Of a stretch of DNA of 64,000 bases, positions 4,901 to 63,700 are shown piece by piece (position 1 is the first letter of the stretch; every line of letters starts with the position of its first letter). Made by a program: the position numbers and the translations under genes. The notes under the pieces were generated by a model. It was not told the DNA's origin and searched no databases. It saw only the letters and a program-made list of their open reading frames with translations. Source of the stretch: a plasmid; assembly GCF_054482525.1 (NCBI RefSeq), contig NZ_JBTHVG010000003.1; one strand, 5' to 3'.

Positions 4901-5067
4901 ATAGTTTCCCTCGTAAATTATCCGATGCGGTATTTTTAACAGAAATGCTTATCGCATAAGGGTACACCCTGACGCCATATTCAAAACGTGACGGCACACG
5001 ATGAATGACATAACCTATATGCGATAGATTAAATGCAATAACTTAAATGCGATAACGTGGTGGAAAA
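4901..5067. promoter_or_regulatory. res site and divergent tnpA/tnpR promoter region
   Basis: AT-rich 167-bp spacer between divergent tnpA and tnpR with repeated ATGCGATA-like motifs; position-based inference. Confidence 0.45.
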
Positions 5068-5703: not shown

Positions 5704-5730
5704 GCACATTTTCTGAGGCTGGAAATCAAC

Positions 5731-6567
5731 TCATGCTGACAGCCTGAGCCTGTTGGCATGGTAAGCAATGTGCTCACCAATAAAGCTGGAAATGAAATAA
5801 TAGCTGTGGTCGTAACCAGTATGATATCGGAATGATGTGTTGATGTTCATCTCGTTGCACACTCTTTCAAGACTTTTAGTGCGTAACTGATCTTCATAAA
5901 AGGCGTCACTTAATCCCTGGTCAATAAAAATTTCTGGTAATTTCGCACCCTGTAAAATGAGACTGACGGGATCGTAGTGCTCCCACGTTTTTTTATTTTC
6001 ACCCAGGTACGCGGTGAATGCCTGTTGTCCCCATGGCACCTGAGAAGGTGACACTATTGGTGAAAATGCCGATACACTCACATATTCATCAGGATTTCGC
6101 AGCGACAGAACCAGCGCTCCCAGCCCCCCCATGGAGTGACCGGATATTGATTTCCTTGATGTTACAGGTAAATGCTCCATGACAACATCCGGAAGCTCAT
6201 GGAGAATATAGTCATACATCCTGTAATGCGTGTTCCACGGATGTTCCGTCGCGTTCAGATAAAATCCGGCACCCTGGCCCAGATCGTAGCTGTCAGCATC
6301 TGCGACATGCTCTCCACGGGGACTGGTATCAGGAACAACGACGATGATGTTGTTCCTGGCGGCATAATGCTGCATACCCGATTTGGTGATGAAATTCTGC
6401 TCCGTACAGGTCAGACCCGAGAGCCAGTACAGGACCGGCAGTTTTTCTGTTGCTGCTTTGGGGGGAAGATAAACACCGAAATTCATCTCACAATTAAGTG
6501 TTTGTGAATTATGGCGGTATACGTTTTGCCAGCCGCCAGCGCTGGCATGCTGCTCGATGAGTTCCAT
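5731..6567 (-). CDS. frmB: S-formylglutathione hydrolase (esterase D family)
   Basis: 278-aa ORF with esterase D/FrmB-like sequence including GHSMGG serine hydrolase motif. Confidence 0.85.
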   Translation of the reverse strand: MELIEQHASAGGWQNVYRHNSQTLNCEMNFGVYLPPKAATEKLPVLYWLSGLTCTEQNFITKSGMQHYAARNNIIVVVPDTSPRGEHVADADSYDLGQGAGFYLNATEHPWNTHYRMYDYILHELPDVVMEHLPVTSRKSISGHSMGGLGALVLSLRNPDEYVSVSAFSPIVSPSQVPWGQQAFTAYLGENKKTWEHYDPVSLILQGAKLPEIFIDQGLSDAFYEDQLRTKSLERVCNEMNINTSFRYHTGYDHSYYFISSFIGEHIAYHANRLRLSA

Positions 6568-12190: not shown

Positions 12191-13510
12191 TTAAGCAGGT
12201 GTGTCAGTTGAAAGAGGTTTGCGTGATTCTGGAAAATGAGGCAGCACCATAGTTTCAGATGCTGTGGTCGCATCCCAGTGCCACCATCCATAAGGCCCAT
12301 ATTCACGGTTGTAATAATCTTTTTTGAGTTGCTTTCGGGCCAGATAAGCAGGAGTGGCCATACCAAATACTTCCATCGGGAACGGCTTATCGCTTTTTGT
12401 GTCGAGCAGGTAGAAGTCAGGGAACACCTCACTAATACTCGCATCATAACGCATGGGCTTAACGTACTGCCGGTGCTCTGCATCCAGCTTTTCTGCAACA
12501 ACCGCCTCATAGGAGGAGTCCAGAGGTATCCAGTTCTCGCTAACGTGCATCAGCACAATTTGATGAGCTCTTACAGAAGGGCCTCTGCCGGTTACCGCAG
12601 CTGGTGACGTCAACGCAAAGACAACTATTTTCGCCCCGGATTTCCATGCTGCGTACTCCGATGAAAATCGTTTCTTTACGCTATCCCAATGGACTTCTGA
12701 ATTGAAAAAAATCAGCGGTAGCCCCCCAAAATTCCGCAGGGGTAAAAATTTAAGTGGCTTCTCATGCTTTTCAGCATCGTAGCGAGGTAAAACTGACAGG
12801 AGCATGAGACGTTTATCACTCATCGCCTGTGATGAAAGACGCTGAATTTGCGACTGAGCGACAGGTTGTTTCGGGTCAGGTACACCAATGAATAAATGGT
12901 CACCTATGCAGGCTCTGCCGGTACGAATTTGTTTAGCGGTTTCAAGCAGACGATACCGTACCAGTGAATCGTTACGTTTCCCTGCCATTTTCGGGTACCA
13001 GACATTCAGACCAGACTCTGTCCACAAAAGACTAAGCAAGCCCAGGAGGGTCATTGAGGCCTGACCTCCTTCTGGTCGCTGAACATGGGGCAGGGGAGGC
13101 ACTTCTGATTTTTCAGGAGGATCTTTCTCTGTCATACCGATACCGAGCCTTACAGCCATATCACCTTCGGTTGTAATCCGGACCACACCACTCGCATATC
13201 CTTTCAGGCCGGTATGCCGGGCATCAAGGGAGAAGAATACACAGGAAGGATCATGCTCAATGCCCGTGTTAGCGGCTTTGACGAGAATAAAGGCATCACC
13301 GTTCGGTAAAGCACGAACATAAAGTCGCTTTTCTCCTTTTCCACGACATCCGCAGGTGATGACTGATTTTTGACCTGAGGTGTGGTGTGCCTTTTTAAGA
13401 GCCGACTGCCACCCTTTAGCAAACTCATCCTGCGTTTGAAAGTCAGGTGAATACCTTTTGACGTTTGGATCGTCGTCGTAAGCAATCATCACTGCGAATT
13501 TTTGGCTCAT
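12191..13510 (-). CDS. hypothetical protein, 439 aa (methyltransferase-linked)
   Basis: Large ORF co-directional with and downstream of the cytosine methyltransferase; no catalytic motif confidently recognised. Confidence 0.55.
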   Translation of the reverse strand: MSQKFAVMIAYDDDPNVKRYSPDFQTQDEFAKGWQSALKKAHHTSGQKSVITCGCRGKGEKRLYVRALPNGDAFILVKAANTGIEHDPSCVFFSLDARHTGLKGYASGVVRITTEGDMAVRLGIGMTEKDPPEKSEVPPLPHVQRPEGGQASMTLLGLLSLLWTESGLNVWYPKMAGKRNDSLVRYRLLETAKQIRTGRACIGDHLFIGVPDPKQPVAQSQIQRLSSQAMSDKRLMLLSVLPRYDAEKHEKPLKFLPLRNFGGLPLIFFNSEVHWDSVKKRFSSEYAAWKSGAKIVVFALTSPAAVTGRGPSVRAHQIVLMHVSENWIPLDSSYEAVVAEKLDAEHRQYVKPMRYDASISEVFPDFYLLDTKSDKPFPMEVFGMATPAYLARKQLKKDYYNREYGPYGWWHWDATTASETMVLPHFPESRKPLSTDTPA

Positions 13511-13532: not shown

Positions 13533-13700
13533 TTAATATCCCAACCAGAGCAACACTTCCTGAGCGTCATACTGTTCCTTTACGCCCATGTCGCTAAAGA
13601 ATTCTTCGAAATCTGTTTCGGGAACGCAATGCCTGGACAGTTCTTGTAATGCTCGTTCTTTAGATACCGTCTCACCTTCAGCTGATTCGAAATACGTCAT
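13533..13700 (-). CDS. small hypothetical protein (55 aa)
   Basis: ORF below the track's size cut-off, translated by hand as MTYFESAEGETVSKERALQELSRH...; sits between the methyltransferase and the 439-aa gene. Confidence 0.3.
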   Translation of the reverse strand: MTYFESAEGETVSKERALQELSRHCVPETDFEEFFSDMGVKEQYDAQEVLLWLGY

Positions 13701-13760
13701 GGTTGACCTCTGACATTATTACAACAATCTTAAGCATTTAAATTGATGAAGGAGCTCAGG

Positions 13761-15230
13761 TCAGCTGACTTCGTCGTAAAACTGCCGCAAGCGCTGGGAG
13801 GCTGCAAATTCAATTCGTGACTTCAGCAGTTTGGCGACGGCCGCAAAGACATCAACGACCACGGAGTTCCCAAACTGTCTGTAAGCCTGTGTATTGGACA
13901 CAGGGATACGGAAAACACTTTCCCCGGGTTTATCGAAGCCCATTAGCCTGCTGCATTCACGTGGCGTTAGCATGCGTGGCCGACGGTCCATGTTGTATGT
14001 GTTATGGAAATCAGTTTCTCCCAGTTCATGAGACCAGCCCCGATCAATAAGAATTTCAGATCCGTCTTTCATATAGCGGCTTGAGAGGGTTCTGGTGACA
14101 CTATTAACATTGGAAGGATCTACTAGTCCAAAACCAAAACCATTGCCTTTTGCCGCATGTTTCTTTGCATAGTTGTATAAGTACTCCCAGAGTTTAGGGG
14201 AGAGGATGTATTTACTATCTACGCTCGGATCCAGTAAATCTGAGAGAGAAGGGCGCTTGTCCGGATAAAAGTCTTTAATGTCTCTCAGAGTAAAACCGTC
14301 TTTCAGACGTAGGTCGCGGCGAAAACCAATAAGGACGATACGTTCACGGTGCTGGGGTCGGAAATGACGGCCATCGATGACTTTAGGATCATCCGCGCCC
14401 GTGCTTTCGCTGTTTGCGACGTCGTAGCCAAGCTCATCGAGCGTTTTCATGATGATGTTAAAGGTATTACCCTTATCGTGACTCTTCAGATTTTTTACGT
14501 TTTCCAGAACAAAAATTGCAGGTTGTTTTGCCCGGATGATCCTGGCCACATCAAAGAAGAGCGTACCCTGAGTGTCGCACTCGAAACCGTGTTTGCGACC
14601 CATAGAGTTCTTTTTACTGACACCGGCGATGCTGAATGGCTGGCATGGAAATCCCGCAAGAAGAACATCATGATCCGGGATAGAGGCATCGATAAATTTG
14701 TATGCCTCGTCATCAGTAACCTCGGGCCGGTTGCTAAGAGTGATGTCACGGATGTCTGAATTGAAGCGGTGCTCGTTCTCATCGCAATACCAGTTCGCCC
14801 GGTAAGTACGGCTGGAATAAGTATTCCATTCGCTCGTGAAAAGACATTTACCACCGATGGCATCAAATCCGCTTCGCAGTCCACCTATCCCTGCAAACAG
14901 ATCGATAAAGCTAAAGTGCCTGTCCTCATAATCAGCAGGTCGTGAAGGTATTAAAGTCTGTAGATAGCGTCCATCTGCGATACTCAGCTCACAATGCTCA
15001 GGTATGCATGTAACCTGACGTTTAAGGGATGCACGGGACCAATTACTGCCATTTTCATCATTTAATACCTGAGCCAGATATTTCAGGTCATAAATGGTCG
15101 AAGCTGTTAACAAAGTTTTGTGGATCAGAGATGGTGTTTTATCCACATCATTCAGGTCTGTCTCAAGATCATGAGTGTAACGTTTCATCCAAACTCTCTC
15201 AGGAATAATATCTTTGAGATAGATTAACAC
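13761..15230 (-). CDS. DNA cytosine-5 methyltransferase, Dcm/M.EcoRII-like
   Basis: Motif I FAGIGG, motif IV PCQPFS, motif [12 protein letters not shown]; N-terminal extension as in Dcm; true start may be an internal Met. Confidence 0.85.
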
Positions 15231-38073: not shown

Positions 38074-39249
38074 ATGAGCCTGCAAAAAACCTGGGGAAAC
38101 ATTCACCTGACCGCGCTCGGCGCGATGATGCTCTCCTTTCTGCTCGTCGGCTGCGACGACAGCGTCGCACAGAATGCTGCGCCTCCCGCCCCGACGGTCA
38201 GCGCCGCTAAGGTGCTGGTGAAGTCGATCAGTCAGTGGGATAGTTTTAACGGTCGCATTGAAGCGGTGGAGAGCGTTCAGCTTCGCCCTCGCGTCTCGGG
38301 ATACATTGATAAAGTGAATTACACTGACGGCCAGGAGGTGAAAAAGGGCCAGGTGCTGTTCACGATAGATGACAGAACCTATCGCGCCGCGCTGGAGCAG
38401 GCGCAGGCGGCGTTGGCAAGAGCCAAAACGCAGGCCAGCCTCGCGCAAAGCGAGGCGAACCGCACCGATAAATTAGTCCATACCAACCTCGTCTCCCGTG
38501 AAGAGTGGGAGCAGCGCCGGTCAGCCGCGGTTCAGGCGCAGGCCGACGTTCGCGCCGCGCAGGCGGCGGTGGATGCCGCGCAGCTTAACCTCGACTTCAC
38601 CAAAGTGACCGCCCCTATTGACGGCCGCGCCAGCCGGGCGCTGATCACCAGCGGTAACCTGGTCACCGCGGGCGACACCGCCAGCGTGCTCACCACCCTG
38701 GTCTCGCAAAAGACGGTGTACGTCTACTTTGACGTCGACGAGTCAACCTACCTCCACTATCAAAACCTCGCCCGCCGCGGGCAAGGCGCGTCCAGCGATA
38801 ATCAGGCGCTCCCGGTGGAGATTGGCCTGGTGGGCGAGGAGGGTTACCCCCACCAGGGCAAAGTGGATTTTCTCGATAATCAGTTAACGCCGAGTACCGG
38901 CACCATCCGCATGCGTGCGCTGCTGGATAACTCGCAGCGTCTGTTCACGCCGGGGCTGTTTGCCCGCGTGCGTCTGCCGGGCAGCGCAGAGTTCAAAGCC
39001 ACGCTGATCGACGACAAAGCGGTACTGACCGATCAGGATCGTAAATACGTCTATATCGTTGATAAAGATGGTAAAGCACAGCGCCGCGACATTACCCCAG
39101 GGCGGCTGGCAGACGGTTTACGCATCGTTCAGAAGGGGTTGAATCCTGGGGATAGCGTCATCGTCGACGGCTTACAAAAAGTGTTTATGCCGGGTATGCC
39201 GGTTAACGCCAAAACCGTTGCCATGACCTCCAGCGCCACCCTTAACTGA
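38074..39249 (+). CDS. oqxA: RND efflux periplasmic adaptor OqxA
   Basis: 391-aa ORF with lipoprotein signal (LLVGC) and membrane-fusion-protein sequence matching OqxA as recalled. Confidence 0.95.
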   Translation: MSLQKTWGNIHLTALGAMMLSFLLVGCDDSVAQNAAPPAPTVSAAKVLVKSISQWDSFNGRIEAVESVQLRPRVSGYIDKVNYTDGQEVKKGQVLFTIDDRTYRAALEQAQAALARAKTQASLAQSEANRTDKLVHTNLVSREEWEQRRSAAVQAQADVRAAQAAVDAAQLNLDFTKVTAPIDGRASRALITSGNLVTAGDTASVLTTLVSQKTVYVYFDVDESTYLHYQNLARRGQGASSDNQALPVEIGLVGEEGYPHQGKVDFLDNQLTPSTGTIRMRALLDNSQRLFTPGLFARVRLPGSAEFKATLIDDKAVLTDQDRKYVYIVDKDGKAQRRDITPGRLADGLRIVQKGLNPGDSVIVDGLQKVFMPGMPVNAKTVAMTSSATLN

Positions 39250-39272
39250 TCCCTAATCAGAGAATCCAAGAC

Positions 39273-42200
39273 ATGGACTTTTCCCGCTTTTTTATCGACA
39301 GGCCGATTTTCGCCGCGGTGCTGTCGATTTTAATTTTTATCACCGGGTTAATCGCTATCCCACTGCTGCCGGTGAGCGAATATCCGGATGTCGTCCCGCC
39401 GAGCGTCCAGGTGCGCGCGGAGTATCCCGGCGCCAACCCGAAAGTGATTGCCGAGACCGTGGCGACGCCGCTGGAGGAAGCGATCAACGGCGTTGAAAAC
39501 ATGATGTACATGAAATCGGTCGCCGGCTCCGACGGCGTGCTGGTCACCACCGTCACCTTCCGCCCGGGTACCGACCCGGATCAGGCGCAGGTTCAGGTGC
39601 AGAACCGCGTCGCGCAGGCCGAAGCGCGTCTGCCGGAGGATGTACGCCGTCTGGGGATCACCACCCAGAAGCAGTCTCCGACGCTGACCCTGGTGGTGCA
39701 TCTGTTCTCCCCCGGCGGGAAGTACGACTCGCTGTATATGCGCAACTACGCCACGCTGAAAGTGAAGGATGAGCTGGCGCGCCTGCCCGGCGTCGGCCAG
39801 ATCCAGATTTTTGGCTCCGGTGAATATGCGATGCGCGTCTGGCTGGATCCCAATAAGGTCGCTGCCCGCGGTCTGACGGCCTCGGATGTGGTGACGGCGA
39901 TGCAGGAGCAAAACGTCCAGGTGTCTGCCGGACAGCTTGGCGCCGAGCCGCTGCCGCAGGAGAGCGATTTCCTGATCTCCATTAACGCCCAGGGCCGTCT
40001 GCATACCGAAGAAGAGTTTGGCAATATCATTCTGAAAACGGCGCAGGATGGCTCGCTGGTCCGCCTGCGCGACGTGGCGCGCATCGAGATGGGTTCCGGT
40101 AGCTATGCGCTGCGCTCCCAGCTCAACAATAAGGATGCGGTCGGGATCGGTATCTTCCAGTCACCCGGCGCTAACGCCATCGATCTGTCGAACGCGGTAC
40201 GCGCCAAAATGGCCGAGCTGGCCACCCGCTTCCCGGAAGATATGCAATGGGCGGCGCCGTACGACCCGACGGTTTTCGTCCGCGACTCCATCCGCGCGGT
40301 GGTGCAGACGCTGCTGGAGGCGGTAGTGCTGGTGGTGCTGGTAGTGATCCTGTTCCTGCAGACCTGGCGCGCGTCGATTATCCCGTTGATCGCTGTGCCG
40401 GTATCGGTGGTGGGTACCTTCAGCATTCTCTATCTGCTGGGCTTCTCGCTGAATACCCTGAGCCTGTTCGGGCTGGTACTGGCTATCGGTATCGTGGTGG
40501 ACGACGCCATCGTGGTGGTGGAGAACGTCGAGCGTAATATCGAAGAGGGGCTTGCGCCGCTTGCCGCGGCGTATCAGGCGATGCGTGAGGTCTCCGGGCC
40601 GATTATCGCCATTGCGCTGGTGCTGTGTGCGGTGTTCGTGCCGATGGCGTTTCTCTCCGGGGTCACCGGCCAGTTCTACAAACAGTTCGCGGTGACCATC
40701 GCCATCTCGACGGTGATCTCGGCCATCAACTCGCTGACGCTCTCCCCGGCGCTGGCGGCCCTGCTGTTAAAGCCGCACGGCGCGAAGAAAGACCTCCCTA
40801 CCCGGCTGATCGATCGCCTGTTTGGCTGGATTTTCCGTCCGTTTAACCGCTTTTTCCTGCGCAGCTCGAACGGCTATCAGGGACTGGTAGGCAAAACGCT
40901 TGGACGCCGTGGCGCAGTGTTTGCGGTGTACCTGCTGCTGCTCTGCGCCGCTGGGGTGATGTTTAAAGTCGTCCCCGGCGGGTTTATTCCCACCCAGGAT
41001 AAGCTGTATCTCATTGGCGGCGTGAAGATGCCGGAAGGGTCGTCGCTGGCGCGCACCGACGCGGTGATCCGCAAAATGAGCGAGATCGGGATGAATACCG
41101 AAGGGGTCGACTATGCGGTCGCTTTCCCGGGGCTTAACGCGCTGCAGTTCACCAACACGCCGAATACCGGGACGATCTTTTTTGGCCTGAAACCGTTCGA
41201 CCAGCGCAAACACACGGCGGCGGAAATTAACGCGGAGATCAACGCCAAAATCGCGCAAATCCAGCAGGGCTTTGGCTTTTCCATCCTGCCGCCGCCGATT
41301 TTAGGTCTGGGTCAGGGTTCCGGCTACTCCCTGTACATCCAGGATCGCGGAGGGCTGGGCTATGGCGCGCTGCAAAGCGCGGTGAATGCGATGTCCGGGG
41401 CGATTATGCAGACGCCGGGGATGCACTTCCCGATCTCGACTTACCAGGCTAACGTGCCGCAGCTGGACGTGCAGGTCGATCGCGATAAGGCGAAAGCGCA
41501 GGGGGTATCGCTAACCGATCTGTTCGGTACGCTGCAGACCTATCTCGGCTCGTCTTATGTCAATGACTTTAACCAGTTCGGGCGTACCTGGCGCGTGATG
41601 GCCCAGGCTGACGGACCATACCGCGAGAGCGTGGAAGATATCGCCAATCTGCGCACCCGCAATAATCAGGGCGAAATGGTACCGATCGGCAGTATGGTGA
41701 ATATCAGTACCACCTACGGGCCGGATCCGGTGATCCGCTACAACGGTTATCCGGCGGCGGACCTGATTGGCGATGCCGATCCGCGGGTCCTCTCTTCTTC
41801 GCAGGCGATGACGCATCTGGAAGAGCTGTCGAAGCAGATCCTGCCGAATGGGATGAATATTGAGTGGACGGATCTCAGCTTCCAGCAGGCCACCCAGGGC
41901 AACACGGCGCTGATCGTCTTCCCGGTGGCGGTGCTGCTGGCATTCCTCGTACTGGCCGCGCTGTATGAAAGCTGGACCCTGCCGCTGGCGGTGATCCTTA
42001 TCGTACCGATGACGATGCTCTCCGCGCTGTTTGGCGTCTGGCTGACCGGGGGCGATAACAACGTCTTCGTGCAGGTGGGTCTGGTGGTCCTGATGGGCCT
42101 GGCCTGTAAAAACGCCATTCTGATCGTCGAGTTTGCCCGCGAGCTGGAGATCCAGGGGAAAGGCATCATGGAAGCGGCGCTGGAGGCATGCCGCCTGCGT

Positions 42201-42425
42201 CTGCGCCCGATCGTGATGACCTCCATCGCCTTTATCGCCGGGACCATTCCGCTGATCCTCGGCCACGGCGCGGGGGCGGAAGTCCGCGGCGTCACCGGGA
42301 TCACGGTGTTCTCCGGGATGCTGGGCGTGACGCTCTTCGGTCTGTTCCTGACGCCGGTGTTTTACGTGACGCTACGGAAACTGGTGACCCGCAGGAAGCC
42401 GGTCCAGGAGGATCTGCCCGCCTAG
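39273..42425 (+). CDS. oqxB: RND efflux transporter OqxB
   Basis: 1050-aa ORF, 12-TM RND permease, 23 bp downstream of oqxA. Confidence 0.95.
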   Translation: MDFSRFFIDRPIFAAVLSILIFITGLIAIPLLPVSEYPDVVPPSVQVRAEYPGANPKVIAETVATPLEEAINGVENMMYMKSVAGSDGVLVTTVTFRPGTDPDQAQVQVQNRVAQAEARLPEDVRRLGITTQKQSPTLTLVVHLFSPGGKYDSLYMRNYATLKVKDELARLPGVGQIQIFGSGEYAMRVWLDPNKVAARGLTASDVVTAMQEQNVQVSAGQLGAEPLPQESDFLISINAQGRLHTEEEFGNIILKTAQDGSLVRLRDVARIEMGSGSYALRSQLNNKDAVGIGIFQSPGANAIDLSNAVRAKMAELATRFPEDMQWAAPYDPTVFVRDSIRAVVQTLLEAVVLVVLVVILFLQTWRASIIPLIAVPVSVVGTFSILYLLGFSLNTLSLFGLVLAIGIVVDDAIVVVENVERNIEEGLAPLAAAYQAMREVSGPIIAIALVLCAVFVPMAFLSGVTGQFYKQFAVTIAISTVISAINSLTLSPALAALLLKPHGAKKDLPTRLIDRLFGWIFRPFNRFFLRSSNGYQGLVGKTLGRRGAVFAVYLLLLCAAGVMFKVVPGGFIPTQDKLYLIGGVKMPEGSSLARTDAVIRKMSEIGMNTEGVDYAVAFPGLNALQFTNTPNTGTIFFGLKPFDQRKHTAAEINAEINAKIAQIQQGFGFSILPPPILGLGQGSGYSLYIQDRGGLGYGALQSAVNAMSGAIMQTPGMHFPISTYQANVPQLDVQVDRDKAKAQGVSLTDLFGTLQTYLGSSYVNDFNQFGRTWRVMAQADGPYRESVEDIANLRTRNNQGEMVPIGSMVNISTTYGPDPVIRYNGYPAADLIGDADPRVLSSSQAMTHLEELSKQILPNGMNIEWTDLSFQQATQGNTALIVFPVAVLLAFLVLAALYESWTLPLAVILIVPMTMLSALFGVWLTGGDNNVFVQVGLVVLMGLACKNAILIVEFARELEIQGKGIMEAALEACRLRLRPIVMTSIAFIAGTIPLILGHGAGAEVRGVTGITVFSGMLGVTLFGLFLTPVFYVTLRKLVTRRKPVQEDLPA

Positions 42426-51256: not shown

Positions 51257-51823
51257 TTGTCTTTTTCTGCAAGAAATATATTTAAGATTCTCTCTTCTTT
51301 CTTGATGCAGAAAAGCCCTCTTCATGAAGAAGTATGTGTTCCTGAAGAAACAACAGCTGGTTTATGGGGCCCTCTCCCTGATTCGCATGTCGTGCTTTTC
51401 TTAGATTTCGATGGGGTTTGTCACAGGTGCAAAAATGAAACCTTTGAGCGAATGCCATTGGTGGAAAAATTACTGGATAAATGCCCTTCCATGGTGATTG
51501 TCATCTCCAGTTCGTGGCGTGAATGTGCCAGTATAACTTACCTGAAATCTCTTTTCCGGCTACCTTATAGAGACAAAGTCATAGGTGCTACCGATTCGGT
51601 ATATTTAAAACCTAATCAGTCAGGTGTGCGGGCTGCTGAGTGTGAGGACTTTGTATTTTCACATCGAGTTAAAGCATTTATCTGCCTTGATGACGACGAA
51701 TCATTATTCCCGGTCGGTTATCCACATTTGCAAAAAACCAATTATTACACCGGCCTCACCGAATCTGATCTTGCAGCTCTTAACACCAGGTATCATCTGC
51801 TTATGAAACGTTGGGCTTCCTGA
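51257..51823 (+). CDS. hypothetical protein, possibly HAD-like hydrolase
   Basis: 188-aa ORF with FLDFDGV motif resembling HAD motif I (DxDG[TV]); weak. Confidence 0.4.
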   Translation: MSFSARNIFKILSSFLMQKSPLHEEVCVPEETTAGLWGPLPDSHVVLFLDFDGVCHRCKNETFERMPLVEKLLDKCPSMVIVISSSWRECASITYLKSLFRLPYRDKVIGATDSVYLKPNQSGVRAAECEDFVFSHRVKAFICLDDDESLFPVGYPHLQKTNYYTGLTESDLAALNTRYHLLMKRWAS

Positions 51824-51930
51824 ATTAAAGTAACTTTTACGGAGAGCATGCCCGCATTATCAGTTCTATGCTTCTCCATTTCTGCCCCGGGTCAAAGCAT
51901 TGCACAGTTGGAAGAAAACATGCCGGTCTC

Positions 51931-53220
51931 TTAAGCTTGCTGCTCAGTTTGGTTCCGGTGCTGAAAAACCTGCCAACGGTGCTTTAGGAATTCAGTATTG
52001 ATGGGTTTACGCAGCGGCTTAATAAACTCTCCTTGATATGCCGCTAAATCATGATCTACCGCCAAAGCTTCAGCGAGAATGTTAACCTCCAACGTCACCG
52101 GATGAATGGCAATCATGTTTGCGTCGAAAAGATCGTGTATATCATGGCGTAAGAGCAACCCATTTGTATAATGGTCTACTCCTCCGTTACGATGCTCCAT
52201 CAGATGAGCAGCCTCAGTGCGCTGGCGCAGTCTAGAGCCTGTAATCACACATTGGTCATAACAGTTGTTGCGGACGGCTTCTGCAAATGAGGCCTGATCT
52301 GGTCGTGTCTCGACAGTTGTCTTACTACCCTTACGCTTACCCGGTACAGTAGTTTCATCAGGAATATTCGGCTGAAGCTCCTTTTCTTCTATACCATCAG
52401 TCTTCATAGCGACCATAATCGCGGCCGGTGGAGATTTAGGCTGATCTTCCTGCGATCTTTCGCGGCCACCAACTGGATACCCTAGAAAACCCTCAATGAT
52501 CTCTAGTGGAGGTAATGTAGCGTTTGAACGTGCATAAATAGCGAACTCTGCGGCACGTCCGCCGGGAATATATCTACGTACCAGTATTGGAAGAGAGGCT
52601 TCTTCATCTGGTTCCTCTTTTTCCGACAGGATTATTCGTTCGGTGAGACGGGCTGAATTTTTTTTCATTTCACTCAACAGTCTATTGCGTTCTTTTACCT
52701 TTCGGTCATTATCCTCCAACATCTTACGATGACTAACCTTAGCCAGATGGTCTTCCAGTTCCTGTATATATTCGGGATCGATAGTGTCAATTAGACCGAA
52801 CGCCATCAACCGCTCCCCCCTTGTTTTACAAGATTCTAGCCGAACGCGAATGTACTCCTTACGCTTGGCCATCAAATGTTCTTTTTGTTTTTTTTCTCGA
52901 ATTACACGGAGCTGAGTATTGTAATTAGAATAAACGGTTTCGCTATTCTGCTCTGTCTCTAGAGCAAATTTTTGTAGGTGTTCACGTAGTTTTTTACGGG
53001 TATTTTTGGGGGCATGCATTACGGTACGCTCAATGTATGAGCCTGTGCAGCGTAAAGAAAGTACAGTTTCAGCATGGGAATAACCAGCATTGAGACGATA
53101 GCGGGCAATTTTAAGCAAATTATTAAAGTGTGCACCATTACATATACCTAGTTCTTCCAAGACACGACGTTCTCTATCATTAATAGATGGATGGTTAATA
53201 TCTTTTACTTTGTTTGCCAT
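51931..53220 (-). CDS. HNH endonuclease-domain protein with long N-terminal coiled region
   Basis: 429-aa ORF; C-terminal CYDQC ... HLMEHRNGGVDHYTNGLLLRHDIHDLFD resembles an HNH motif. Confidence 0.6.
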   Translation of the reverse strand: MANKVKDINHPSINDRERRVLEELGICNGAHFNNLLKIARYRLNAGYSHAETVLSLRCTGSYIERTVMHAPKNTRKKLREHLQKFALETEQNSETVYSNYNTQLRVIREKKQKEHLMAKRKEYIRVRLESCKTRGERLMAFGLIDTIDPEYIQELEDHLAKVSHRKMLEDNDRKVKERNRLLSEMKKNSARLTERIILSEKEEPDEEASLPILVRRYIPGGRAAEFAIYARSNATLPPLEIIEGFLGYPVGGRERSQEDQPKSPPAAIMVAMKTDGIEEKELQPNIPDETTVPGKRKGSKTTVETRPDQASFAEAVRNNCYDQCVITGSRLRQRTEAAHLMEHRNGGVDHYTNGLLLRHDIHDLFDANMIAIHPVTLEVNILAEALAVDHDLAAYQGEFIKPLRKPINTEFLKHRWQVFQHRNQTEQQA

Positions 53221-53308
53221 GTCCTGTGTCTCAGTGCCTATTCAGCCGGAACATCTACTACATAAAGAACGAGATTGTACAGAAATCAGCTAAGTTTATG
53301 AATAAAAA

Positions 53309-53345
53309 AGGCCGCAAATTTATACTTTGCGGCCTTCACTGTTTA
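53309..53345 (-). terminator. hairpin terminator downstream of trhG
   Basis: AAGGCCGCAAA-loop-TTTGCGGCCTT with flanking A/T runs. Confidence 0.45.
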
Positions 53346-53400
53346 ACACCATATTTTAGTAAATACGTTTAATTTTCATTAGGTTATATTTGAAACTCAC

Positions 53401-56400
53401 CTACCTTTTATTTTCATTAAGCCACTGATCCGCTTTATCGACACGTGACTGGTAAGGCTCATTTGTGTTGCTCAGCTCTGACTTCATGTACTGAATGAAT
53501 TCATCTGCTTTCTGAGGCCCAAAGCGTGGGTCATCCGTCAATTGCTGCCGGATAGCCCTTTCAGAGTTCTGCGCTGCATTCGCATAAGTCGAAACGCCGT
53601 CGCTGCTAATACTCTGATACCGGTCACTTACAGCTGCGACGCCATCAGACATCTGCATGTGATTAAGGACTTTACCCTGGAGAGAATCAGGCATATTTGC
53701 AGGGTTAGAGGCATCATTTGCTATCGATGTCTGGGTTTGAAGGATGCCCGCTCCCGTAAGCATCTCATTTACCGGTTTCGCCCCAACGCTGGTTAGCGTA
53801 TCCGAAACAAATTGCTGGCCCCCGAGTAGCGCACCAGAAATCGCGCCCCGCTCAGTGTTGGCCTCTATCTTTTCCCCAACCAAGCGATCTGTGACGGTCT
53901 GAGTGCGGTTACCAACGAGACCACCGCCCGACCCACCCTCTCCTAGGTTTGCCCGTACGACTGACTCAAGTGAACCATCAGCTCTGTTATGAGTGTTGAA
54001 ACTGCTATGGATGCTCTGAACGTCATTCATACTCCAGTTAACGTTATAGTTACCCAGTTCATTAAGGATCTTCTGGGTATCCGCTTTGAGCTGCTCTCTT
54101 TCGGCACCGGTAGCCATGGTGCTGGCACCATAGGTAAAGACAGCTTGCTGTGCCAATTCAGCTCGCTTATCGTCCCGGCTTAAGTTCGGGTTGTTGGCAA
54201 CACGACTAAAGTAGTTATCAGTGTTATTAGATAAGCCACGAACTTGACCGCTCTGATACATACTGTTCAAAGCAGTGGCTCGTTGATCCATTCCATCACC
54301 AACCACCCGACCTCCGGTAGCCTTTTCCAGATCGTTAAATGTGCCTTCTGCATTTCTGACATCCTGACCTGAATTGACGACTTTCTCTACACCCTGATTA
54401 TTCAGTACAGGGCCATTCGTTTTGAGAGAATTGAGCACATTCCTTTCTTCATCAGAATAAGTGCGGCCCACGTTGTTGTTATGTATTCCCTGAATATCGC
54501 CTTTGCCCGCGTTATCAAGGTTATACGGAGTAAAGCCAGCTTCACTTTTTCCAGGGACACGCTGAGTCGCGTCCTGAGCGTTGGAGGAAAGACCGAGTTT
54601 AGCCTGCGAATCAACACTTCCACCCAGTTCCCCTACGCGTGACGCACTCATCACGCCAGACGTATTTACGCTGTCAGGAGTTCTATCCTGTGCCTGAGTG
54701 ATAGTATTAATTCCTGACCCTTCGCCTGAAATTCTGTCGAGCTGATTGGTGATAGGTAGCAGCTGCTGTGCATTACCACCGAAGTCGGAAACCAGACTTT
54801 TAAGCAGGCTGGAGGTTTCACGGAGATCCTGTTTATTACTTTCGGCCGTCTCTCCCCGGGCGGTATCAATCGCAATTTTTTGCTCACTGAAATCTCGTGT
54901 TGCAGCCACAAGCGCGTCAGTACGTTGAAGCTGCGAACCAAGCTGATTACTGGCCTTGAAGGTATCGTTATAGGAGTTGAATTTCTCCATAAACGCATTC
55001 TCATCCAGCCCATTCTTACGAGCAAAATTCCTTACATCATCATCACTGAAGTTTTTGTTGCGAATAGAATCGGAGAACCTGTCCAGGTTAATGCTTTGTT
55101 TAGAATCAAGGCTCATTCCACTATTGGAGCTGGCGTTAGTCGATACCGATGTAGAAATGTTTTGCGCCATCGTCTGTGTCGCCTGGTTCATTTTCGACGA
55201 TGCTTCTTTAAACGCATTAGTATTGGATATCTGATCGCTGCTTACCTGAGACGCCGCTTTACTGAACTGGTCAGTCAAAGCAGAATCCTGGCTAAGCTGA
55301 TTCGTGATTGCTTTTGAAAGGTCATTTGAAAGCGAGTCACTGCCTGTATTGGTCTTAGATGCGCCGCTACTCAATTGCCCTGCTACAGCTGCTTTCAGCC
55401 CGGCTCCGTTGCCAGTTCCAGCACCTCCATTAAGCCCAGCGTTTAGAATAACATTTGAAGCAATGCTGGCCATCTGAGACGCACTCACCCCATGTTTCGT
55501 TGCAATACCTTCTGCTACAGAGGCACCAATCTTATCCGAGATCTGCTTCATTGTTTGCAGGTTGGTTGAGAACTGCTGGCTCGACTGTCCTGACCTTCCA
55601 ATTTCACTCATCTGACTGTAACCAGCCTGGAATGAATTACTTGCCGCACTCATAACTGATGAGGTTACAGCTGATCCTTGCCCCTGGCTGTTAGCGATAC
55701 TTGAACCAGCATTCCACATTCCAAGACGGAAATTACTTGAATCAACTGCGCCGCCATCGCTGTATCCCTGACCGGTACTGGTCAAGGCGGTTCGTGTCAC
55801 GTCACCAAATGAAGATTTACCGCTGTTAGGGCCATCCCATACTTTGGGCGTTACATGACCAGTATCCACCGGCGCATCGGGGGTCACTCCCTTAACCGCA
55901 TTCATCATCGGGTGAATCGACTGTGTCATCAGGAATAATGTGAGTACCGGAATCAGAGCATAAAGCGCGGAAGCAACAGACAGGTATGAACTGTATGTTT
56001 CCGCAAGCCCTGGGAGCCCCATCCACGTGACGGCATTATTCTGGCTGTTGAGGGTGCTCCAGGTATCCAGATCGGCCGTCGCGACTTTCTTCACATACGC
56101 GTTGACCATTACTGCCGTAAGCGGCCACATATTCACGAAGAGAATAAGTTGCAAATATTTCGCCGCAGCGGCAACACCATTACCACCTAACGCCAGCAGC
56201 ATAAGCAAAGCAAATGGAGCAACCATGTAAGCAAACATCTCAAGGAATGCGATTGCTGCTCCAGACAGTTGTAACCACAACTGGCCCTGTGAAGCCATTG
56301 TGTTGGTTCGCTTCAGAGAAGCCTCAAACAACTGCATATCGGAAGCCAGACTGAGTGGGGTCTTATATTTGCTTGCGCCATTTCTGAGCTCATTCATTAT

Positions 56401-57354
56401 GAACAGGTTCAGGGTGGCGTCATACGAACCAATAGCCTTACCGTACATACCATTTGCTGACGCCATAACATCAGTAAAACTTGCGCCGGTAGGTGCACCA
56501 TTTGCTTCGTCTGGAGTAAGGATGCCGTTTGTCTGTCCTATAAGGGAAATAGTCTGGCGAGCTTCAGCTGTACTGGTAACCTGTTTCACAGTTGACCAGA
56601 CCTCATCACACGTACCAGATTTTGAACCGTTAGCGCCAACAATACTGGCAGAGGCATTCTTCAGTGCGCCTTTCATCGCCTGATTAATCCGGTCCATGCT
56701 ATCTGCCAGATTAGCTGAGAAAATATCGTTAAAAATAGTTTCTTTACCGGCAATATTTGCGCTTGAGTTTTGGGTAGCCTTCAGGCAGTTGTATGCAAGA
56801 GACTGAACGGTAGCACATACGTTCATTGGCCCTAGCCCGCTGGCCGGTTCAGGAAATGCAGAACAGTAGCCCTGGCTATCGCCGCCCCATTGCAAAAACT
56901 TCACGAATCGGATCATCGGACCGAGGGTGATGTCATCGTCCAGAGTTGTTGCAGACAGGTCCACCGGAGAAAGCGGATCAAACGCAGTTTTATAATCCTT
57001 CAGCAAACCCTGGCTTAAGTTAGTGGTGACGGTGGCCATCGCAGCAATAAAAATTGGAATTCCGTCGACGTTTCTGACCTCTCCCGACTTTACAGATTCA
57101 ATAGTTACATCCACTCGAACCATTGCCATCATGAAAAGGATCAACCCCAAAAACCAGGAGAAAAACGGTAATTCATTTTTGGTCGGAGCCTGAAGCCATA
57201 GCCACGTTTTATAGAATAGGCTCACACCTGCTACAACGGCGGCCGTGGTCAGGAACTCTTTTACACCAGTATATTGAGAAAAGATTAGGGCAATACCGGT
57301 AAAAGCCGACCAGACAAAATCAATATCACCCAGGGTATATATGTTGTAATCCAT
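53401..57354 (-). CDS. trhG: conjugative mating-pair stabilisation protein TraG/TrhG
   Basis: 1317-aa ORF; polytopic N-terminal membrane domain and long Ser/Gly/Asn/Gln-rich C-terminal region typical of F-type TraG. Confidence 0.85.
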   Translation of the reverse strand: MDYNIYTLGDIDFVWSAFTGIALIFSQYTGVKEFLTTAAVVAGVSLFYKTWLWLQAPTKNELPFFSWFLGLILFMMAMVRVDVTIESVKSGEVRNVDGIPIFIAAMATVTTNLSQGLLKDYKTAFDPLSPVDLSATTLDDDITLGPMIRFVKFLQWGGDSQGYCSAFPEPASGLGPMNVCATVQSLAYNCLKATQNSSANIAGKETIFNDIFSANLADSMDRINQAMKGALKNASASIVGANGSKSGTCDEVWSTVKQVTSTAEARQTISLIGQTNGILTPDEANGAPTGASFTDVMASANGMYGKAIGSYDATLNLFIMNELRNGASKYKTPLSLASDMQLFEASLKRTNTMASQGQLWLQLSGAAIAFLEMFAYMVAPFALLMLLALGGNGVAAAAKYLQLILFVNMWPLTAVMVNAYVKKVATADLDTWSTLNSQNNAVTWMGLPGLAETYSSYLSVASALYALIPVLTLFLMTQSIHPMMNAVKGVTPDAPVDTGHVTPKVWDGPNSGKSSFGDVTRTALTSTGQGYSDGGAVDSSNFRLGMWNAGSSIANSQGQGSAVTSSVMSAASNSFQAGYSQMSEIGRSGQSSQQFSTNLQTMKQISDKIGASVAEGIATKHGVSASQMASIASNVILNAGLNGGAGTGNGAGLKAAVAGQLSSGASKTNTGSDSLSNDLSKAITNQLSQDSALTDQFSKAASQVSSDQISNTNAFKEASSKMNQATQTMAQNISTSVSTNASSNSGMSLDSKQSINLDRFSDSIRNKNFSDDDVRNFARKNGLDENAFMEKFNSYNDTFKASNQLGSQLQRTDALVAATRDFSEQKIAIDTARGETAESNKQDLRETSSLLKSLVSDFGGNAQQLLPITNQLDRISGEGSGINTITQAQDRTPDSVNTSGVMSASRVGELGGSVDSQAKLGLSSNAQDATQRVPGKSEAGFTPYNLDNAGKGDIQGIHNNNVGRTYSDEERNVLNSLKTNGPVLNNQGVEKVVNSGQDVRNAEGTFNDLEKATGGRVVGDGMDQRATALNSMYQSGQVRGLSNNTDNYFSRVANNPNLSRDDKRAELAQQAVFTYGASTMATGAEREQLKADTQKILNELGNYNVNWSMNDVQSIHSSFNTHNRADGSLESVVRANLGEGGSGGGLVGNRTQTVTDRLVGEKIEANTERGAISGALLGGQQFVSDTLTSVGAKPVNEMLTGAGILQTQTSIANDASNPANMPDSLQGKVLNHMQMSDGVAAVSDRYQSISSDGVSTYANAAQNSERAIRQQLTDDPRFGPQKADEFIQYMKSELSNTNEPYQSRVDKADQWLNENKR

Positions 57355-60407: not shown

Positions 60408-60920
60408 TTAATCTAATTCTTCTTGAGAATACCTCTCTATGGCTGAAGCAGTTGAAGATAATCTGCAACGTGGACAATAAGCATCATTTGTCACTGGCAC
60501 AATGTATGGGCGTTTACATTTTTCGCAGGCACCTAGTTCTTCAATTTCTTTCATAGAAGTAAGGATTTCTATTATTTTATTAACTTCCGGTGCGCATACA
60601 AAGTATCCCAGATTATGAAGGACACTCATTATTCGGTTGAAGTCAATTTGCCGAAAACTCGCTTCCGGATTTATTGGATCAAAACCAAAATAGTTAACTG
60701 CGACATCAATAACAGCAGAAAAAGCTCGGCGGTTATCTGTGCGTTTGCTCCAGCCCCGGATACCTTTTTTGAGTTTTGTTTTTGCACCAGGCTCAAAATC
60801 GATATTTTCAGCAACATGATTACCGTACAAAATTCGTATTGTATTTTTATTTGCCCCAAGCGACATAGTCCTTGCTGCTCGCAATAGAGCATTAGCTTTT
60901 GTTTGATCGACCTTTGCCAT
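60408..60920 (-). CDS. zinc-ribbon protein, candidate transfer activator (TrhY-like by position)
   Basis: 170-aa ORF with C-terminal CEKC...CPRC; placement upstream of trhF-H-G matches my recollection of the IncHI trhR-trhY-trhX-trhF-trhH-trhG operon. Confidence 0.4.
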   Translation of the reverse strand: MAKVDQTKANALLRAARTMSLGANKNTIRILYGNHVAENIDFEPGAKTKLKKGIRGWSKRTDNRRAFSAVIDVAVNYFGFDPINPEASFRQIDFNRIMSVLHNLGYFVCAPEVNKIIEILTSMKEIEELGACEKCKRPYIVPVTNDAYCPRCRLSSTASAIERYSQEELD

Positions 60921-60921
60921 A

Positions 60922-61722
60922 TTAATAATCCTTTAACATAACTTTATTTGTTAAAGTGTTGAACACATCCTGACGGTGACTGGTGAACATAGTGTCATAA
61001 CGTAATAGTTCCATCAAATCATCACTAACTTTTCCTAACCGGATGTCAGCAGACAATTCATAAGCCCAGGCAAAAACTTTCGTTTTAAGTGAAACACTCT
61101 CTTCAATATGCCCTTGTGAGAAAGCAATTGTACGTGGGAAAAGAACGACATCGTTAATTGTTTTTAACGATGAATAACCAATGTCTTTAATAGCATCAGC
61201 TGTAGTTGGTTTTAAACCAAAGAAAACACTTACAAACTCTGGTGCGAGCATTGAGATAAAGAACACCTGCATAAAGTAGTCATTCTGTATATCAACACAT
61301 TTAGAACGCAACTCATGAATCTTCTTGGGATTATAGATATCCACTGTACCATTCAGAAAAGTCACTTTTTCACCGGCATCGTAAATACCATAGTCAATAT
61401 CATTTGTATCATATTCACGAATTACATTGGAATCACCGTCCAAGACCGCAGAAAAAAACCTCTCCCATGTAATTTCCTTTCCGAGTGTACGCGGAACCAA
61501 AAAACTACCTGGACGTGTTTCCACTTCAAAAGCTAAATCAGCGGCTGTACTAAATCCTTTCCCAAATAGGCGACGCTGGAGAAGAGGAGTCCCAGTTTGA
61601 TATGCAGAAGATCCATGCACAGGCAATAACATTAAAAATGCACGGTAACTACGAATAAGCGAAATCTCAGTGCGGAAAAGTTTACCGAGTAAGCTACGAG
61701 TTAAATTATCAGATTCTGACAT
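60922..61722 (-). CDS. candidate transfer activator (TrhR-like by position)
   Basis: 266-aa ORF, first gene of the minus-strand operon, 1 nt before the downstream gene. Confidence 0.4.
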   Translation of the reverse strand: MSESDNLTRSLLGKLFRTEISLIRSYRAFLMLLPVHGSSAYQTGTPLLQRRLFGKGFSTAADLAFEVETRPGSFLVPRTLGKEITWERFFSAVLDGDSNVIREYDTNDIDYGIYDAGEKVTFLNGTVDIYNPKKIHELRSKCVDIQNDYFMQVFFISMLAPEFVSVFFGLKPTTADAIKDIGYSSLKTINDVVLFPRTIAFSQGHIEESVSLKTKVFAWAYELSADIRLGKVSDDLMELLRYDTMFTSHRQDVFNTLTNKVMLKDY

Positions 61723-62191: not shown

Positions 62192-62480
62192 TTTTTTTGG
62201 AAAAGTGGCACTAGATATATGTATAACTTTAATAGAGCAATGCACATTATCAAAAGCAATAATCCACAATGGTCATTCCCTCAAAAGTAACTTTAGAGGG
62301 TAGCGATGGAAGTGAGGCTAAACTCGCTGTTACTGTTTCTGAAGGCCCCTCCCGAATGGGGGAAACAGCGAGTGCATTACATCTGTTCAATTCCCTCATC
62401 AAAGAGCATTCAAAAATCTTCTGTTCGTGAAAAAAAACGGAAATTTCCTCCGGTATAGTAATTTCACATCAGGAGGCGTC

Positions 62481-62966
62481 ATGAGTAATTCGAATCTTAT
62501 AAGTTCTATAGAGCTAACACGTAAAAATTTACGTGCTCAGATTGAAGGTTTGCGTGTTGAGGCTGAAGATCTCATTACAAAATACTGGATCAAGTGGAAG
62601 GAACGAAACCACCAAGAGATTAACCTTACCCGACATAGCAAAGTTCCAAAGAGGGAGTATCTGGGTTCTTACGCACCAAAAGTTGAGCTAATTGGTAATG
62701 CCAGAAAAGTAACGATCACTTGGCATCAGTTCAGCCCTTATAAAACAAGAGCGCCTAGTCACATGTCAAAACGGGTGCAACCAATGAAAAGTGGAAAATA
62801 TTCTAAGAACTGTTTTGTAAACCATGCCAGCTGGGAATACGAAATGATTTCTGAAACGGAAGCATTGCTGGAGCCTTACAGAGAAATGCTTGAGCTCTAT
62901 CATTCAGCATATATCGAACTTGGACGAAAAATCCGTCAATACTCAAAAACTAAGGTGGCACAATGA
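62481..62966 (+). CDS. hypothetical protein, first gene of the divergent plus-strand operon
   Basis: Start taken at internal Met (MSNSNLISS); by position this could be an HtdA-like regulator, but that is a guess. Confidence 0.35.
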   Translation: MSNSNLISSIELTRKNLRAQIEGLRVEAEDLITKYWIKWKERNHQEINLTRHSKVPKREYLGSYAPKVELIGNARKVTITWHQFSPYKTRAPSHMSKRVQPMKSGKYSKNCFVNHASWEYEMISETEALLEPYREMLELYHSAYIELGRKIRQYSKTKVAQ

Positions 62967-63700
62967 CCGACGCAATTATCACGGACAATGAGCGTATTAA
63001 CATTGAACCAAAAGATGTAATGGTAAAAGGTTCAAATAAAAAGCAAGGCGTAAACGCTCAAACTTCTACTCAACGTAGACCAGAGCACCAGGGTATGGCC
63101 AAAGTTATTATTAACCCCGGCACCCCAGATTTTAACCGGTTTTTAACTGCCAGAAATGGAGCAGTCATCAGAGGTTTTGATGATGTGAGTATCGCTATTT
63201 CCTCTCTCTTTAAAACGGTTGATGCAGTTAAACATCCTGACCTTGTTCAGGCTATTCAGGATTGGTTCAACGAGCTGCATGAAGAAAACAATAAGATGAA
63301 AGAAAATCTTGTTGCTTATATTAAGTCAATTGAGTTCGACAAGAATGACTCATTCATGTCATCAACTCAGTTTGTACCTTTCAGTTTTGAACCAGTACAA
63401 CTCAACTTCAATAACCACAACACCATGAGGTTTTACAAGTACATCTTCGAGATGAACCAGCTCATGAACACAATGTATGAGTACAACTCATTGGGTTTAC
63501 TGGCTGTAAGCGACTATCCGGTTATGTCTCACAACATTATAAAGAGTATTAATTTATATGTTGAGAATGTGAAAAAGACTCTGAATGTTTCTCGCCGTAA
63601 GGATGGGCCATACAGTCCAGCAGAGTTCATCACCAAAGTAATGCAATATAAAAGTGTGCAGGCATACATTGCAGCCGAACTGTCAGGCAAACGTCGATAA
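62963..63700 (+). CDS. hypothetical protein
   Basis: 245-aa ORF overlapping the upstream stop by 4 nt. Confidence 0.4.
   Translation: MTDAIITDNERINIEPKDVMVKGSNKKQGVNAQTSTQRRPEHQGMAKVIINPGTPDFNRFLTARNGAVIRGFDDVSIAISSLFKTVDAVKHPDLVQAIQDWFNELHEENNKMKENLVAYIKSIEFDKNDSFMSSTQFVPFSFEPVQLNFNNHNTMRFYKYIFEMNQLMNTMYEYNSLGLLAVSDYPVMSHNIIKSINLYVENVKKTLNVSRRKDGPYSPAEFITKVMQYKSVQAYIAAELSGKRR

Follow-up and report, generated by a model that had tools for sequence, protein, structure and literature searches.

An HNH_2 nuclease gene beside trhG is exchangeable cargo in a two-cassette slot of IncHI2 plasmids

Does a nuclease gene that sits beside the transfer genes of an IncHI2 plasmid belong to the transfer machinery, or is it cargo that the backbone carries? 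The question is raised by an open reading frame (ORF) for a protein of 429 amino acids (aa) at positions 51931-53220 of a 64,000-nucleotide stretch of plasmid DNA (NCBI RefSeq assembly GCF_054482525.1, contig NZ_JBTHVG010000003.1), which we refer to throughout as the window. A preliminary description of this gene, made from the letters alone, saw a stand-alone protein with an HNH-like motif near a transfer region and listed defence, anti-defence, and DNA processing as candidate roles. IncHI2 plasmids are major carriers of multidrug resistance, and the window itself carries oqxAB. We find that the nuclease gene is accessory cargo, carried by the IncHI2 backbone at a recombination hotspot, namely the spacer between the terminator of the trhFHG genes and a HAD-like gene. 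The gene is confined to one IncHI2 lineage and is exchanged as a cassette. The slot and its occupant have the following features:

51931..53220, minus strand: coding sequence of the HNH_2 nuclease, 429 aa, ATG-started in the ORF list
51814..53303: variable cassette without a counterpart in R478-type IncHI2 plasmids, delimited by blastn of pEB247 against the window
53401..57354, minus strand: trhG (TraG_N family, 1317 aa), upstream flank of the slot
53307..53337, minus strand: intrinsic terminator of the trhF-trhH-trhG operon, a 12-pair stem (6 GC pairs) followed by a T-run
53274..53302, minus strand: predicted promoter-like site TTCATA-17-TACAAT from a consensus scan, inside the cassette
51257..51823, plus strand: convergent HAD-like gene (HAD_SAK_2, PHROG 1818), flank of the slot and outside the cassette

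Occupancy of the slot was assessed in an IncHI2 set of 960 PLSDB plasmids that contain the last 1 kb of trhG at an identity of at least 95%. The HNH_2 cassette is present in 521 of these plasmids (approximately 54%), with 291 from Escherichia and 191 from Salmonella. An alternative cassette is present in 433 plasmids (approximately 45%), 254 of them from Enterobacter, and this group includes pEB247 and R478. Together the two cassettes account for 954 of the 960. Homology between pEB247 and the window breaks off at 51813, within the last codons of the HAD gene, and is restored from 53304 onwards, immediately beyond the terminator that both have. The intervening cassette (51814-53303) contains one ORF and its promoter, with no methyltransferase or immunity gene. 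The alternative cassette, at positions 4296-5873 of locus L013 (pEB247) and 13561-15138 of locus L020 (R478), is unrelated and lies on the opposite strand. It encodes a 353-aa protein with a weak C-terminal match to the HNH family PF01844, followed by a 168-aa protein of the YrhA family (NF038335, 125 bits). This pairing of HNH and YrhA proteins has the look of a toxin with its immunity protein. A two-cassette slot that divides IncHI2 in this way appears to be undescribed.

The flanks of the slot record how the cassettes were exchanged. Near the cassette, the IncHI2 lineages differ by 18-32 mismatches per 250 bp (approximately 7-13%), against a background of approximately 1%. The zone of raised mismatch, roughly ten-fold above the background, lies in the nearest 750 bp towards the HAD gene and the nearest 250 bp towards trhG, a pattern which implies that the cassettes were exchanged by homologous recombination together with diverged flanks. 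The slot is empty in both of the IncHI1 plasmids that were examined, where a spacer of approximately 250-370 bp is all that separates trhG from the convergent HAD gene (14472-14717 of L019, the IncHI1 plasmid pHCM1; 14472-14842 of L021, an IncHI1B plasmid). In a MOBH plasmid of more distant relationship, the genes at this position are quite different. Conservation with the transfer region therefore fails, as the nuclease gene is absent from R478-type IncHI2 plasmids, from pHCM1, from the IncHI1B plasmid, and from the distant MOBH plasmid. Such variable occupancy means that the position beside the transfer genes marks a cargo slot and not a functional link.

The arrangement of the locus points in the same direction on transcription. 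The preliminary description had the nuclease gene transcribed away from trhG, which is misleading: the gene is co-directional with trhG and lies downstream of it, behind the terminator. Its convergence with the HAD-like gene was read correctly. The trhFHG terminator belongs to the backbone common to both IncHI2 lineages, and its stem is kept in pEB247. A predicted strong terminator and then the promoter-like site thus separate trhG from the nuclease gene, which is probably not part of the tra operon. The promoter-like site lies 54 nt upstream of the nuclease ATG, and an AGGA sequence is found 3 nt before the ATG. A search around the promoter for inverted repeats resembling operators turned up the terminator stem alone. 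The ORF itself is real and starts with ATG, and at the DNA level it matches the WP_001284752.1 gene, which is annotated on many IncHI2 plasmids, with 100% identity. The HNH_2 family and the sequence are already known, and the RefSeq entry carries the generic name 'HNH endonuclease signature motif containing protein'. No second copy of the gene and no partner gene were found in the window by tblastn.

The HAD gene adjoins the empty slot in IncHI1. Its Pfam family, HAD_SAK_2, was assigned on its counterpart in contig L008 (described below), and its start is given as a TTG at 51257 (188 aa) in the ORF list and as 51305 (172 aa) in RefSeq. Between the two IncHI2 lineages the HAD gene has diverged far more than the backbone, with 71 mismatches in the cassette-side 750 bp, against approximately 1% elsewhere. 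In the comparison with L008, its ratio of nonsynonymous to synonymous divergence (dN/dS) is 0.44, and that of trhG is 0.05.

To describe the protein, we combined profile searches with two AlphaFold2 models, one of the whole protein (10 sequences) and one of residues 1-252 (12 sequences; mean predicted local distance difference test score, pLDDT, of 83.5). Both models agree on the N-terminal layout. The predicted architecture, from the N-terminus to the C-terminus, is:

53008..53220, minus strand: residues 1-71, compact four-helix domain (AlphaFold2 helices 15-23, 32-45, 49-57, and 60-68; pLDDT approximately 90)
52636..53007, minus strand: residues 72-195, two long, highly charged helices (AlphaFold2, 72-130 and 149-193)
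52468..52608, minus strand: residues 205-251, small three-helix domain (AlphaFold2, 210-246; pLDDT 80-90)
52339..52467, minus strand: residues 252-294, poorly conserved linker of variable length (alignment gaps; pLDDT below 50)
51931..52338, minus strand: residues 295-429 and the stop codon, HNH_2 module with a family-specific C-terminal extension
52102-52251, minus strand: residues 324-373, Pfam HNH_2 core (PF13391, E=3.6e-10)

The C-terminal module is an intact HNH_2 domain with conserved catalytic residues. The motif noticed earlier by eye passes profile search, and the PF13391 match covers the full model (positions 1-66 of 66). The consensus of the module is KR.G...V.TRPDQ..F...V..NC...CVITG...AAHL.EH...NGL.LR.DIH.LFD, and the C-terminal extension of this HNH subfamily is 55 aa long. 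Residues C320, C324, H339, N353, H362, and D366 are invariant among 10 full-length homologues, and the columns equivalent to the C/H/N/H/D positions are also invariant in the wider set of proteins that share the HNH module alone. Homologues in which these catalytic and metal-binding positions are invariant are 30-60% identical, so retained catalysis is favoured and the protein is predicted to be an active nuclease. Matches to PHROGs families are confined to the C-terminal module. A profile of the catalytic module finds one solved relative, VcaM4I (PDB 6yex, E=7.6e-8), a modification-dependent restriction endonuclease of EVE-HNH type, in which a sensor forms the N-terminal part and an HNH domain the C-terminal part (PMC7897488). 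Full-length homologues of 393-490 aa have the same layout as the 429-aa protein, which is thus not a fragment of something larger, and occur on other mobile elements.

The N-terminal half had been described as one long, charged, and probably coiled region. The charge and the long helices stand, with 45% charged residues across positions 100-210, whereas the single coiled region gives way to a four-helix domain, a three-helix domain, and a disordered linker. Residues 72-195 are the most divergent part among homologues, and in the models the two long helices could form a coiled-coil or dimerisation arm. The three-helix domain, with the motif LVRRYIPGG..AEF...PL.IIEGFLG, is the best-conserved N-terminal part (45-77% identical across full-length homologues). 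Disorder in the AlphaFold2 model extends beyond the linker proper and spans residues 252-309. Residues 45-68 (GYSHAETVLSLRCTGSYIERTV) look like a helix-turn-helix to the eye, a likeness unsupported by any tool. The N-terminal Foldseek matches are to MerR/CueR regulators (E approximately 1.6) and are not significant. When a profile of residues 1-256 was compared with 1.84 billion representative proteins it gave 8 matches, of which six are the N-termini of full-length relatives (393-490 aa) and two are short fragments of the 429-aa protein; no fusion partner other than HNH_2 was found in this search. The modelled N-terminal module (aa 1-250) appears to be all-helical, to lie outside known families, and to occur solely in fusion with HNH_2 domains. 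It appears to be undescribed.

The two halves of the protein are shuffled independently. Proteins P0010-P0026, which are 251-510 aa long, carry the HNH module at 50-65% identity behind many unrelated N-termini. PF13391 matches every one of the 25 relatives in which the N-terminus differs, and no Pfam domain was found in these alternative N-termini. In a plasmid search, the HNH module alone was found on hundreds of other enterobacterial plasmids. In the converse arrangement, P0049 (9001-10473 of L018) and P0050 (9001-10311 of L017) carry the same N-terminal module on a different and more canonical HNH_2 subtype, recognised by the motif CA[IV][ST]G...AAH[IV], with a nuclease part that is 31-35% identical. 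Several further observations concern these relatives. An extra segment of approximately 110 aa precedes the nuclease in P0049. IncHI plasmids carry shorter paralogues of the HNH module with other N-termini, at most approximately 1 kb from the plasmid hns gene (6797-7405 of L006, IncHI2; 5413-6219 and 6791-7501 of L005, IncHI1B), and most IncHI2 records give a second tblastn match, which falls outside the window. The Salmonella phage SeKF_80 (86623-87009), and also phage 7-11, have an HNH module that is approximately 34% identical; the gene is called a 'ParB-like partition protein' in one record and may represent another N-terminal partner.

A mosaic allele captures this shuffling within the slot itself. 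L008 is a contig from a metagenome run with an IncHI2-like backbone of approximately 92.5% DNA identity, and it carries a 57% identical homologue (P0003) at the same site. Relative to the window, identity is 50-60% from the trhG stop codon to approximately codon 305, and approximately 90% through the HNH module and beyond. The replaced segment has sharp breakpoints and corresponds to 52300..53400 of the window and 8735-9900 of L008, covering the promoter region and codons 1 to approximately 305. Synonymous divergence (dS) is saturated in codons 1-304 (at least 1.5), against 0.22 in codons 305-429, 0.34 in trhG, and 0.17 in the HAD gene, and dN/dS in the N-terminal half is 0.1-0.3. These values imply replacement of an allele and not rapid evolution in place. 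In L008, the promoter and the N-terminal half appear from the alignment to have been swapped for an old and distant allele by a crossover at the domain boundary, with the HNH module following the backbone. Positive selection on the N-terminal half in situ was considered and rejected, since synonymous sites are saturated and dN/dS is low. Shuffling of this kind is typical of specificity domains.

Homologues outside IncHI2-like backbones show what company the gene keeps. None of the contexts of these full-length homologues is linked to transfer genes, and four of these homologues have known defence genes as direct or close neighbours (Type I restriction, CRISPR, or Gabija-like). Two of these, P0007 and P0008 from Salmonella, are in genomic islands and directly adjoin Type I restriction-modification (R-M) operons. 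The P0007 island also encodes a helicase-PLD protein, a second HNH_2 gene, Fic, and HipA, and the P0008 island encodes a NERD-helicase. P0004 is flanked by ccdAB and a KAP NTPase, with OLD/UvrD-type genes nearby, and P0049 is in an integrase-bearing element that adjoins type I-F cas genes. A relative that shares the HNH module alone is found near SIR2 and DUF87 genes. P0005 is in a small island beside pth and ychF. Among 50,697 phage records, just 8 contain even the C-terminal module. The P0004, P0005, and P0049 genes are each directly preceded by a conserved ORF of approximately 91 aa that is 41-80% identical between the loci (8716-8991 of L009, 7725-7997 of L003, and 8723-8998 of L018, respectively). 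This ORF has no match in Pfam or PADLOC and is absent from the window. The idea that it is a stand-alone copy of the N-terminal domain was rejected, as hhalign gave a probability of 0.2%.

What, then, does the cargo do? The preliminary description held that its role could not be read from sequence alone. That judgement is upheld, and defence was rightly listed among the candidates. Our tentative preference, to which we give somewhat less than an even chance, is that the protein combines a sensor with an HNH nuclease and acts in conflicts with foreign DNA, in the manner of a solitary or Type IV restriction enzyme. The helical N-terminal module (aa 1-250) would select or sense the DNA substrate, the long helices would probably dimerise the protein, and the flexible linker would tether an HNH domain that cuts foreign DNA from phage or rival plasmids. 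The plasmid would benefit by protecting its host or by excluding competitors. We favour this reading because the catalytic module is kin to VcaM4I, because the gene forms a single-gene unit without a methyltransferase, because the non-catalytic half is exchanged as a module in a locus that behaves as a hotspot, and because R-M and other defence genes are repeatedly nearby. The N-terminal module is without a demonstrable DNA-binding or modification-reading fold, so we stop short of classing the protein as Type IV, although its mode of action is probably similar. The literature offers a possible earlier sighting, an 'HNH endonuclease' beside an mcr-1 insertion with DsbC on the other side, which is consistent with the nuclease gene but of unconfirmed identity (PMC5748712).

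A number of observations weigh against the sensor-nuclease reading. The sensor role of the N-terminal module, which we infer, is its weakest point. Domain and structure searches of the protein found no recognisable modification-reader or DNA-binding domain. The domain search of the N-terminal 300 aa that the preliminary description had suggested came back empty in Pfam, NCBIfam, PADLOC, PDB, and AlphaFold-DB; there were no significant relatives among Pfam families (queried with the protein and with 12 aligned N-termini), PHROGs, or PDB sequence profiles, and no structural relatives in PDB or AlphaFold-DB. For the nuclease half, PADLOC gives a weak match to an unnamed HNH model (1.7e-5), and pLDDT is below 50 over HNH core residues 319-359 in a model built from a shallow 10-sequence alignment. 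Identification as a phosphorothioate-dependent restriction endonuclease (NF045808) was rejected, with 16.5 bits against a cutoff of 180 and alignment of the HNH part alone. The consensus promoter scan returned two matches against 4.7 expected by chance. Some neighbourhoods also fit poorly: P0009, in a phage-like contig, precedes genes for a tail-spike-like protein (Peptidase_S74), terminase, and portal; P0026, related through the HNH module alone, is in a phage-plasmid-like contig with the DNA-metabolism genes for thymidylate synthase, DHFR, RNase H, and Dam; and P0027 comes after a Rep3 gene on a plasmid from Serratia. None of these three neighbourhoods includes defence genes. Finally, no functional study of the nuclease gene was found in the literature on the accession, on IncHI2 HNH proteins, or on IncHI2 defence.

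Chief among the alternatives is a homing endonuclease of the free-standing kind, a selfish gene that would bring the plasmid no benefit. Its product would cleave alleles of related plasmids that lack the cassette, in or close to the trhG-HAD junction, and recombinational repair would copy the gene in. This explanation fits an intergenic insertion with its own predicted promoter between conserved genes, and a presence/absence polymorphism at one site that is empty in two IncHI1 plasmids and holds an unrelated HNH gene in the sister lineage. It also fits the several paralogues per plasmid and the divergence raised right beside the cassette, as co-conversion predicts, but divergence of the flanks is equally expected from ordinary hotspot exchange. 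The helical N-terminal half, long flexible linker, and nuclease resemble modular homing enzymes, of which I-TevI and I-HmuI are examples, and relatives are found among DNA-metabolism genes and near terminase in phage-plasmid-like contigs, the classic sites for such genes. However, the alternative cassette with its YrhA-family partner means that the slot takes other cargo and is not specific to homing, L008 exchanged the N-terminal half alone and not the whole gene, and several homologues lie beside or near defence genes. The characterised members of the HNH_2 group are, moreover, restriction enzymes (AlwI, BbrI, and HphI, PMC5714182; VcaM4I). On balance we judge homing unlikely. Less likely still is a nuclease for plasmid competition or addiction, which would exclude or kill rival IncHI lineages or plasmid-free segregants and would not be aimed at phage. 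Two exclusive nuclease cassettes do split IncHI2 (521 and 433 of 960) with different host spectra, the HNH protein and small YrhA-family partner of the alternative cassette seem to resemble a toxin-immunity pair, and one subclade of homologues has the conserved 91-aa ORF immediately upstream. Against this, the cassette in the window is a single ORF with no adjacent partner or immunity gene of the kind that defines toxin-immunity and toxin-antitoxin systems, no secretion or delivery signal was identified, and the cassette split may simply be clonal lineage history. We hold equally improbable a bolder reading in which the two exclusive cassettes are weapons or identity markers between IncHI2 lineages, or are directed at host-specific phages or DNA modifications, and help to determine the hosts open to each of these clinically important lineages, with the N-terminal module as a new sensor of DNA or its modifications.

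The remaining explanations have less to recommend them. An anti-defence or establishment role, in which the nuclease or its DNA-binding part would be expressed early in the recipient and ease the settling of the incoming plasmid, draws on the position of the gene approximately 9 kb from the mobI/mobH region, which is proximal to the origin of transfer, on the same strand as trhFHG. P0049 and P0050 also lie in runs of small co-directional ORFs (ParE-like, OB-fold, and NikA-like) that resemble leading regions, and leading regions are rich in anti-defence genes (PMC11541004). HNH nucleases are not listed in that survey, though, no similarity to known anti-defence proteins was found, and many homologues are chromosomal-island genes that adjoin R-M systems; we think this role very unlikely. 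We give slightly less credence to a DNA-binding regulator or structural protein whose HNH fold no longer cleaves. The helix-turn-helix-like pattern at the N-terminus, the long helices, the weak MerR/CueR matches, and the paralogues that adjoin the plasmid hns gene all suit a regulator, but the catalytic and metal-binding positions are all invariant and the fold matches are not significant. The least probable explanation is a component of conjugative DNA processing that acts, for example, in nicking or resolution during transfer. Its sole support is position, next to trhG and approximately 9 kb from the relaxase region. Yet the gene is absent from R478 and from pHCM1-type IncHI1 plasmids, whose trhFHG and HAD genes are otherwise conserved, and PLSDB types all 433 plasmids with the alternative cassette, pEB247 and R478 included, as conjugative. 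The gene is also set apart from trhG by a terminator and has homologues in contexts that are not conjugative. It is effectively excluded that conjugation requires the gene, and the DNA-processing role raised in the preliminary description is close to refuted by R478 and the two IncHI1 plasmids examined.

Other features of the window were noted in passing. Two conserved genes for proteins of 170 and 266 aa without a family match, at 60408-61722 (minus strand) and 62427-63700 (plus strand), sit between trhF and the mobI/mobH relaxase region and are also found in IncHI1 and R478; to judge by position, they may match trhY and trhR of R27. An orphan, Dcm-like DNA cytosine methylase (PRK10458, 846 bits) is encoded at 13761-15230 (minus strand), and the 439-aa gene that adjoins it at 12191-13510 (minus strand) has the position of the DUF1173 gene beside the IncHI1 cytosine methyltransferase. 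A resistance region spans approximately 20600-43800 and includes oqxA and oqxB (38074-42425, exact NCBIfam matches), several truncated Tn3-family transposase genes, and seven TTG-start ORFs of equal length (240 aa), of which the one tested is an IS6/IS26-family transposase.

Recognition of the nuclease gene as exchangeable cargo, and not as part of the transfer machinery, disposes of a false lead. Because its alternative contents fall cleanly to two IncHI2 lineages of different host spectra, the slot is a convenient typing marker; it may also affect the range of hosts, the sensitivity to phages, or the competition between plasmids. A sensor of DNA or its modifications in the N-terminal module would be a new reader domain for sensor-nuclease enzymes. 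Should the gene instead prove to be no more than a selfish homing gene or a solitary nuclease of ordinary kind, the finding would be routine.

Among known systems, the closest likeness is to sensor-HNH enzymes of the VcaM4I type, which are likewise single polypeptides with a non-catalytic N-terminal module and a C-terminal HNH_2 domain. VcaM4I and the catalytic module share the pattern R..Q..F....C..TG...A.H...NGL...H.LFD. ScoMcrA-type enzymes are further sensor-HNH modification-dependent restriction endonucleases. As with Type IV sensor-HNH enzymes in general, no adjacent methyltransferase is present in the unit, and homologues of the 429-aa protein adjoin Type I R-M systems, in the way that mcrBC and mrr adjoin hsd in E. 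coli K-12. Unlike the Type IV enzymes, the protein has an N-terminal module that is not a PUA, EVE, SRA, YTH, SBD, or winged-helix reader, and its HNH subfamily has the 55-aa C-terminal extension of its own. AlwI, BbrI, and HphI come with cognate methyltransferases, which the IncHI2 cassette does not. They are Type IIS HNH_2 restriction enzymes in group 6 of the His-Me finger classification (PMC5714182). Like the 429-aa protein, they join an HNH_2 domain to a separate recognition domain, the fold of which is unknown or varied.

The comparison with mobile elements follows similar lines. The free-standing HNH homing endonucleases of phages, such as the T4 Mob proteins and I-HmuI-like enzymes, are also intergenic, have their own promoters, show presence/absence polymorphism, and have an N-terminal half tethered to the nuclease by a linker. 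The domain order is reversed in the 429-aa protein, however, with the HNH domain at the C-terminus, and the domain is HNH_2 and not HNH or HNH_3. Hotspots HS1-HS5 of the SXT/R391 integrative and conjugative elements, which are related MOBH/MPF_F elements, carry phage-defence cargo. The IncHI2 slot resembles these hotspots as an intergenic site among conserved transfer genes that holds alternative cargo in near-identical backbones. It differs in being tiny, with room for one or two genes, and in offering essentially two alternatives among the 960 PLSDB plasmids, both of them HNH nucleases.

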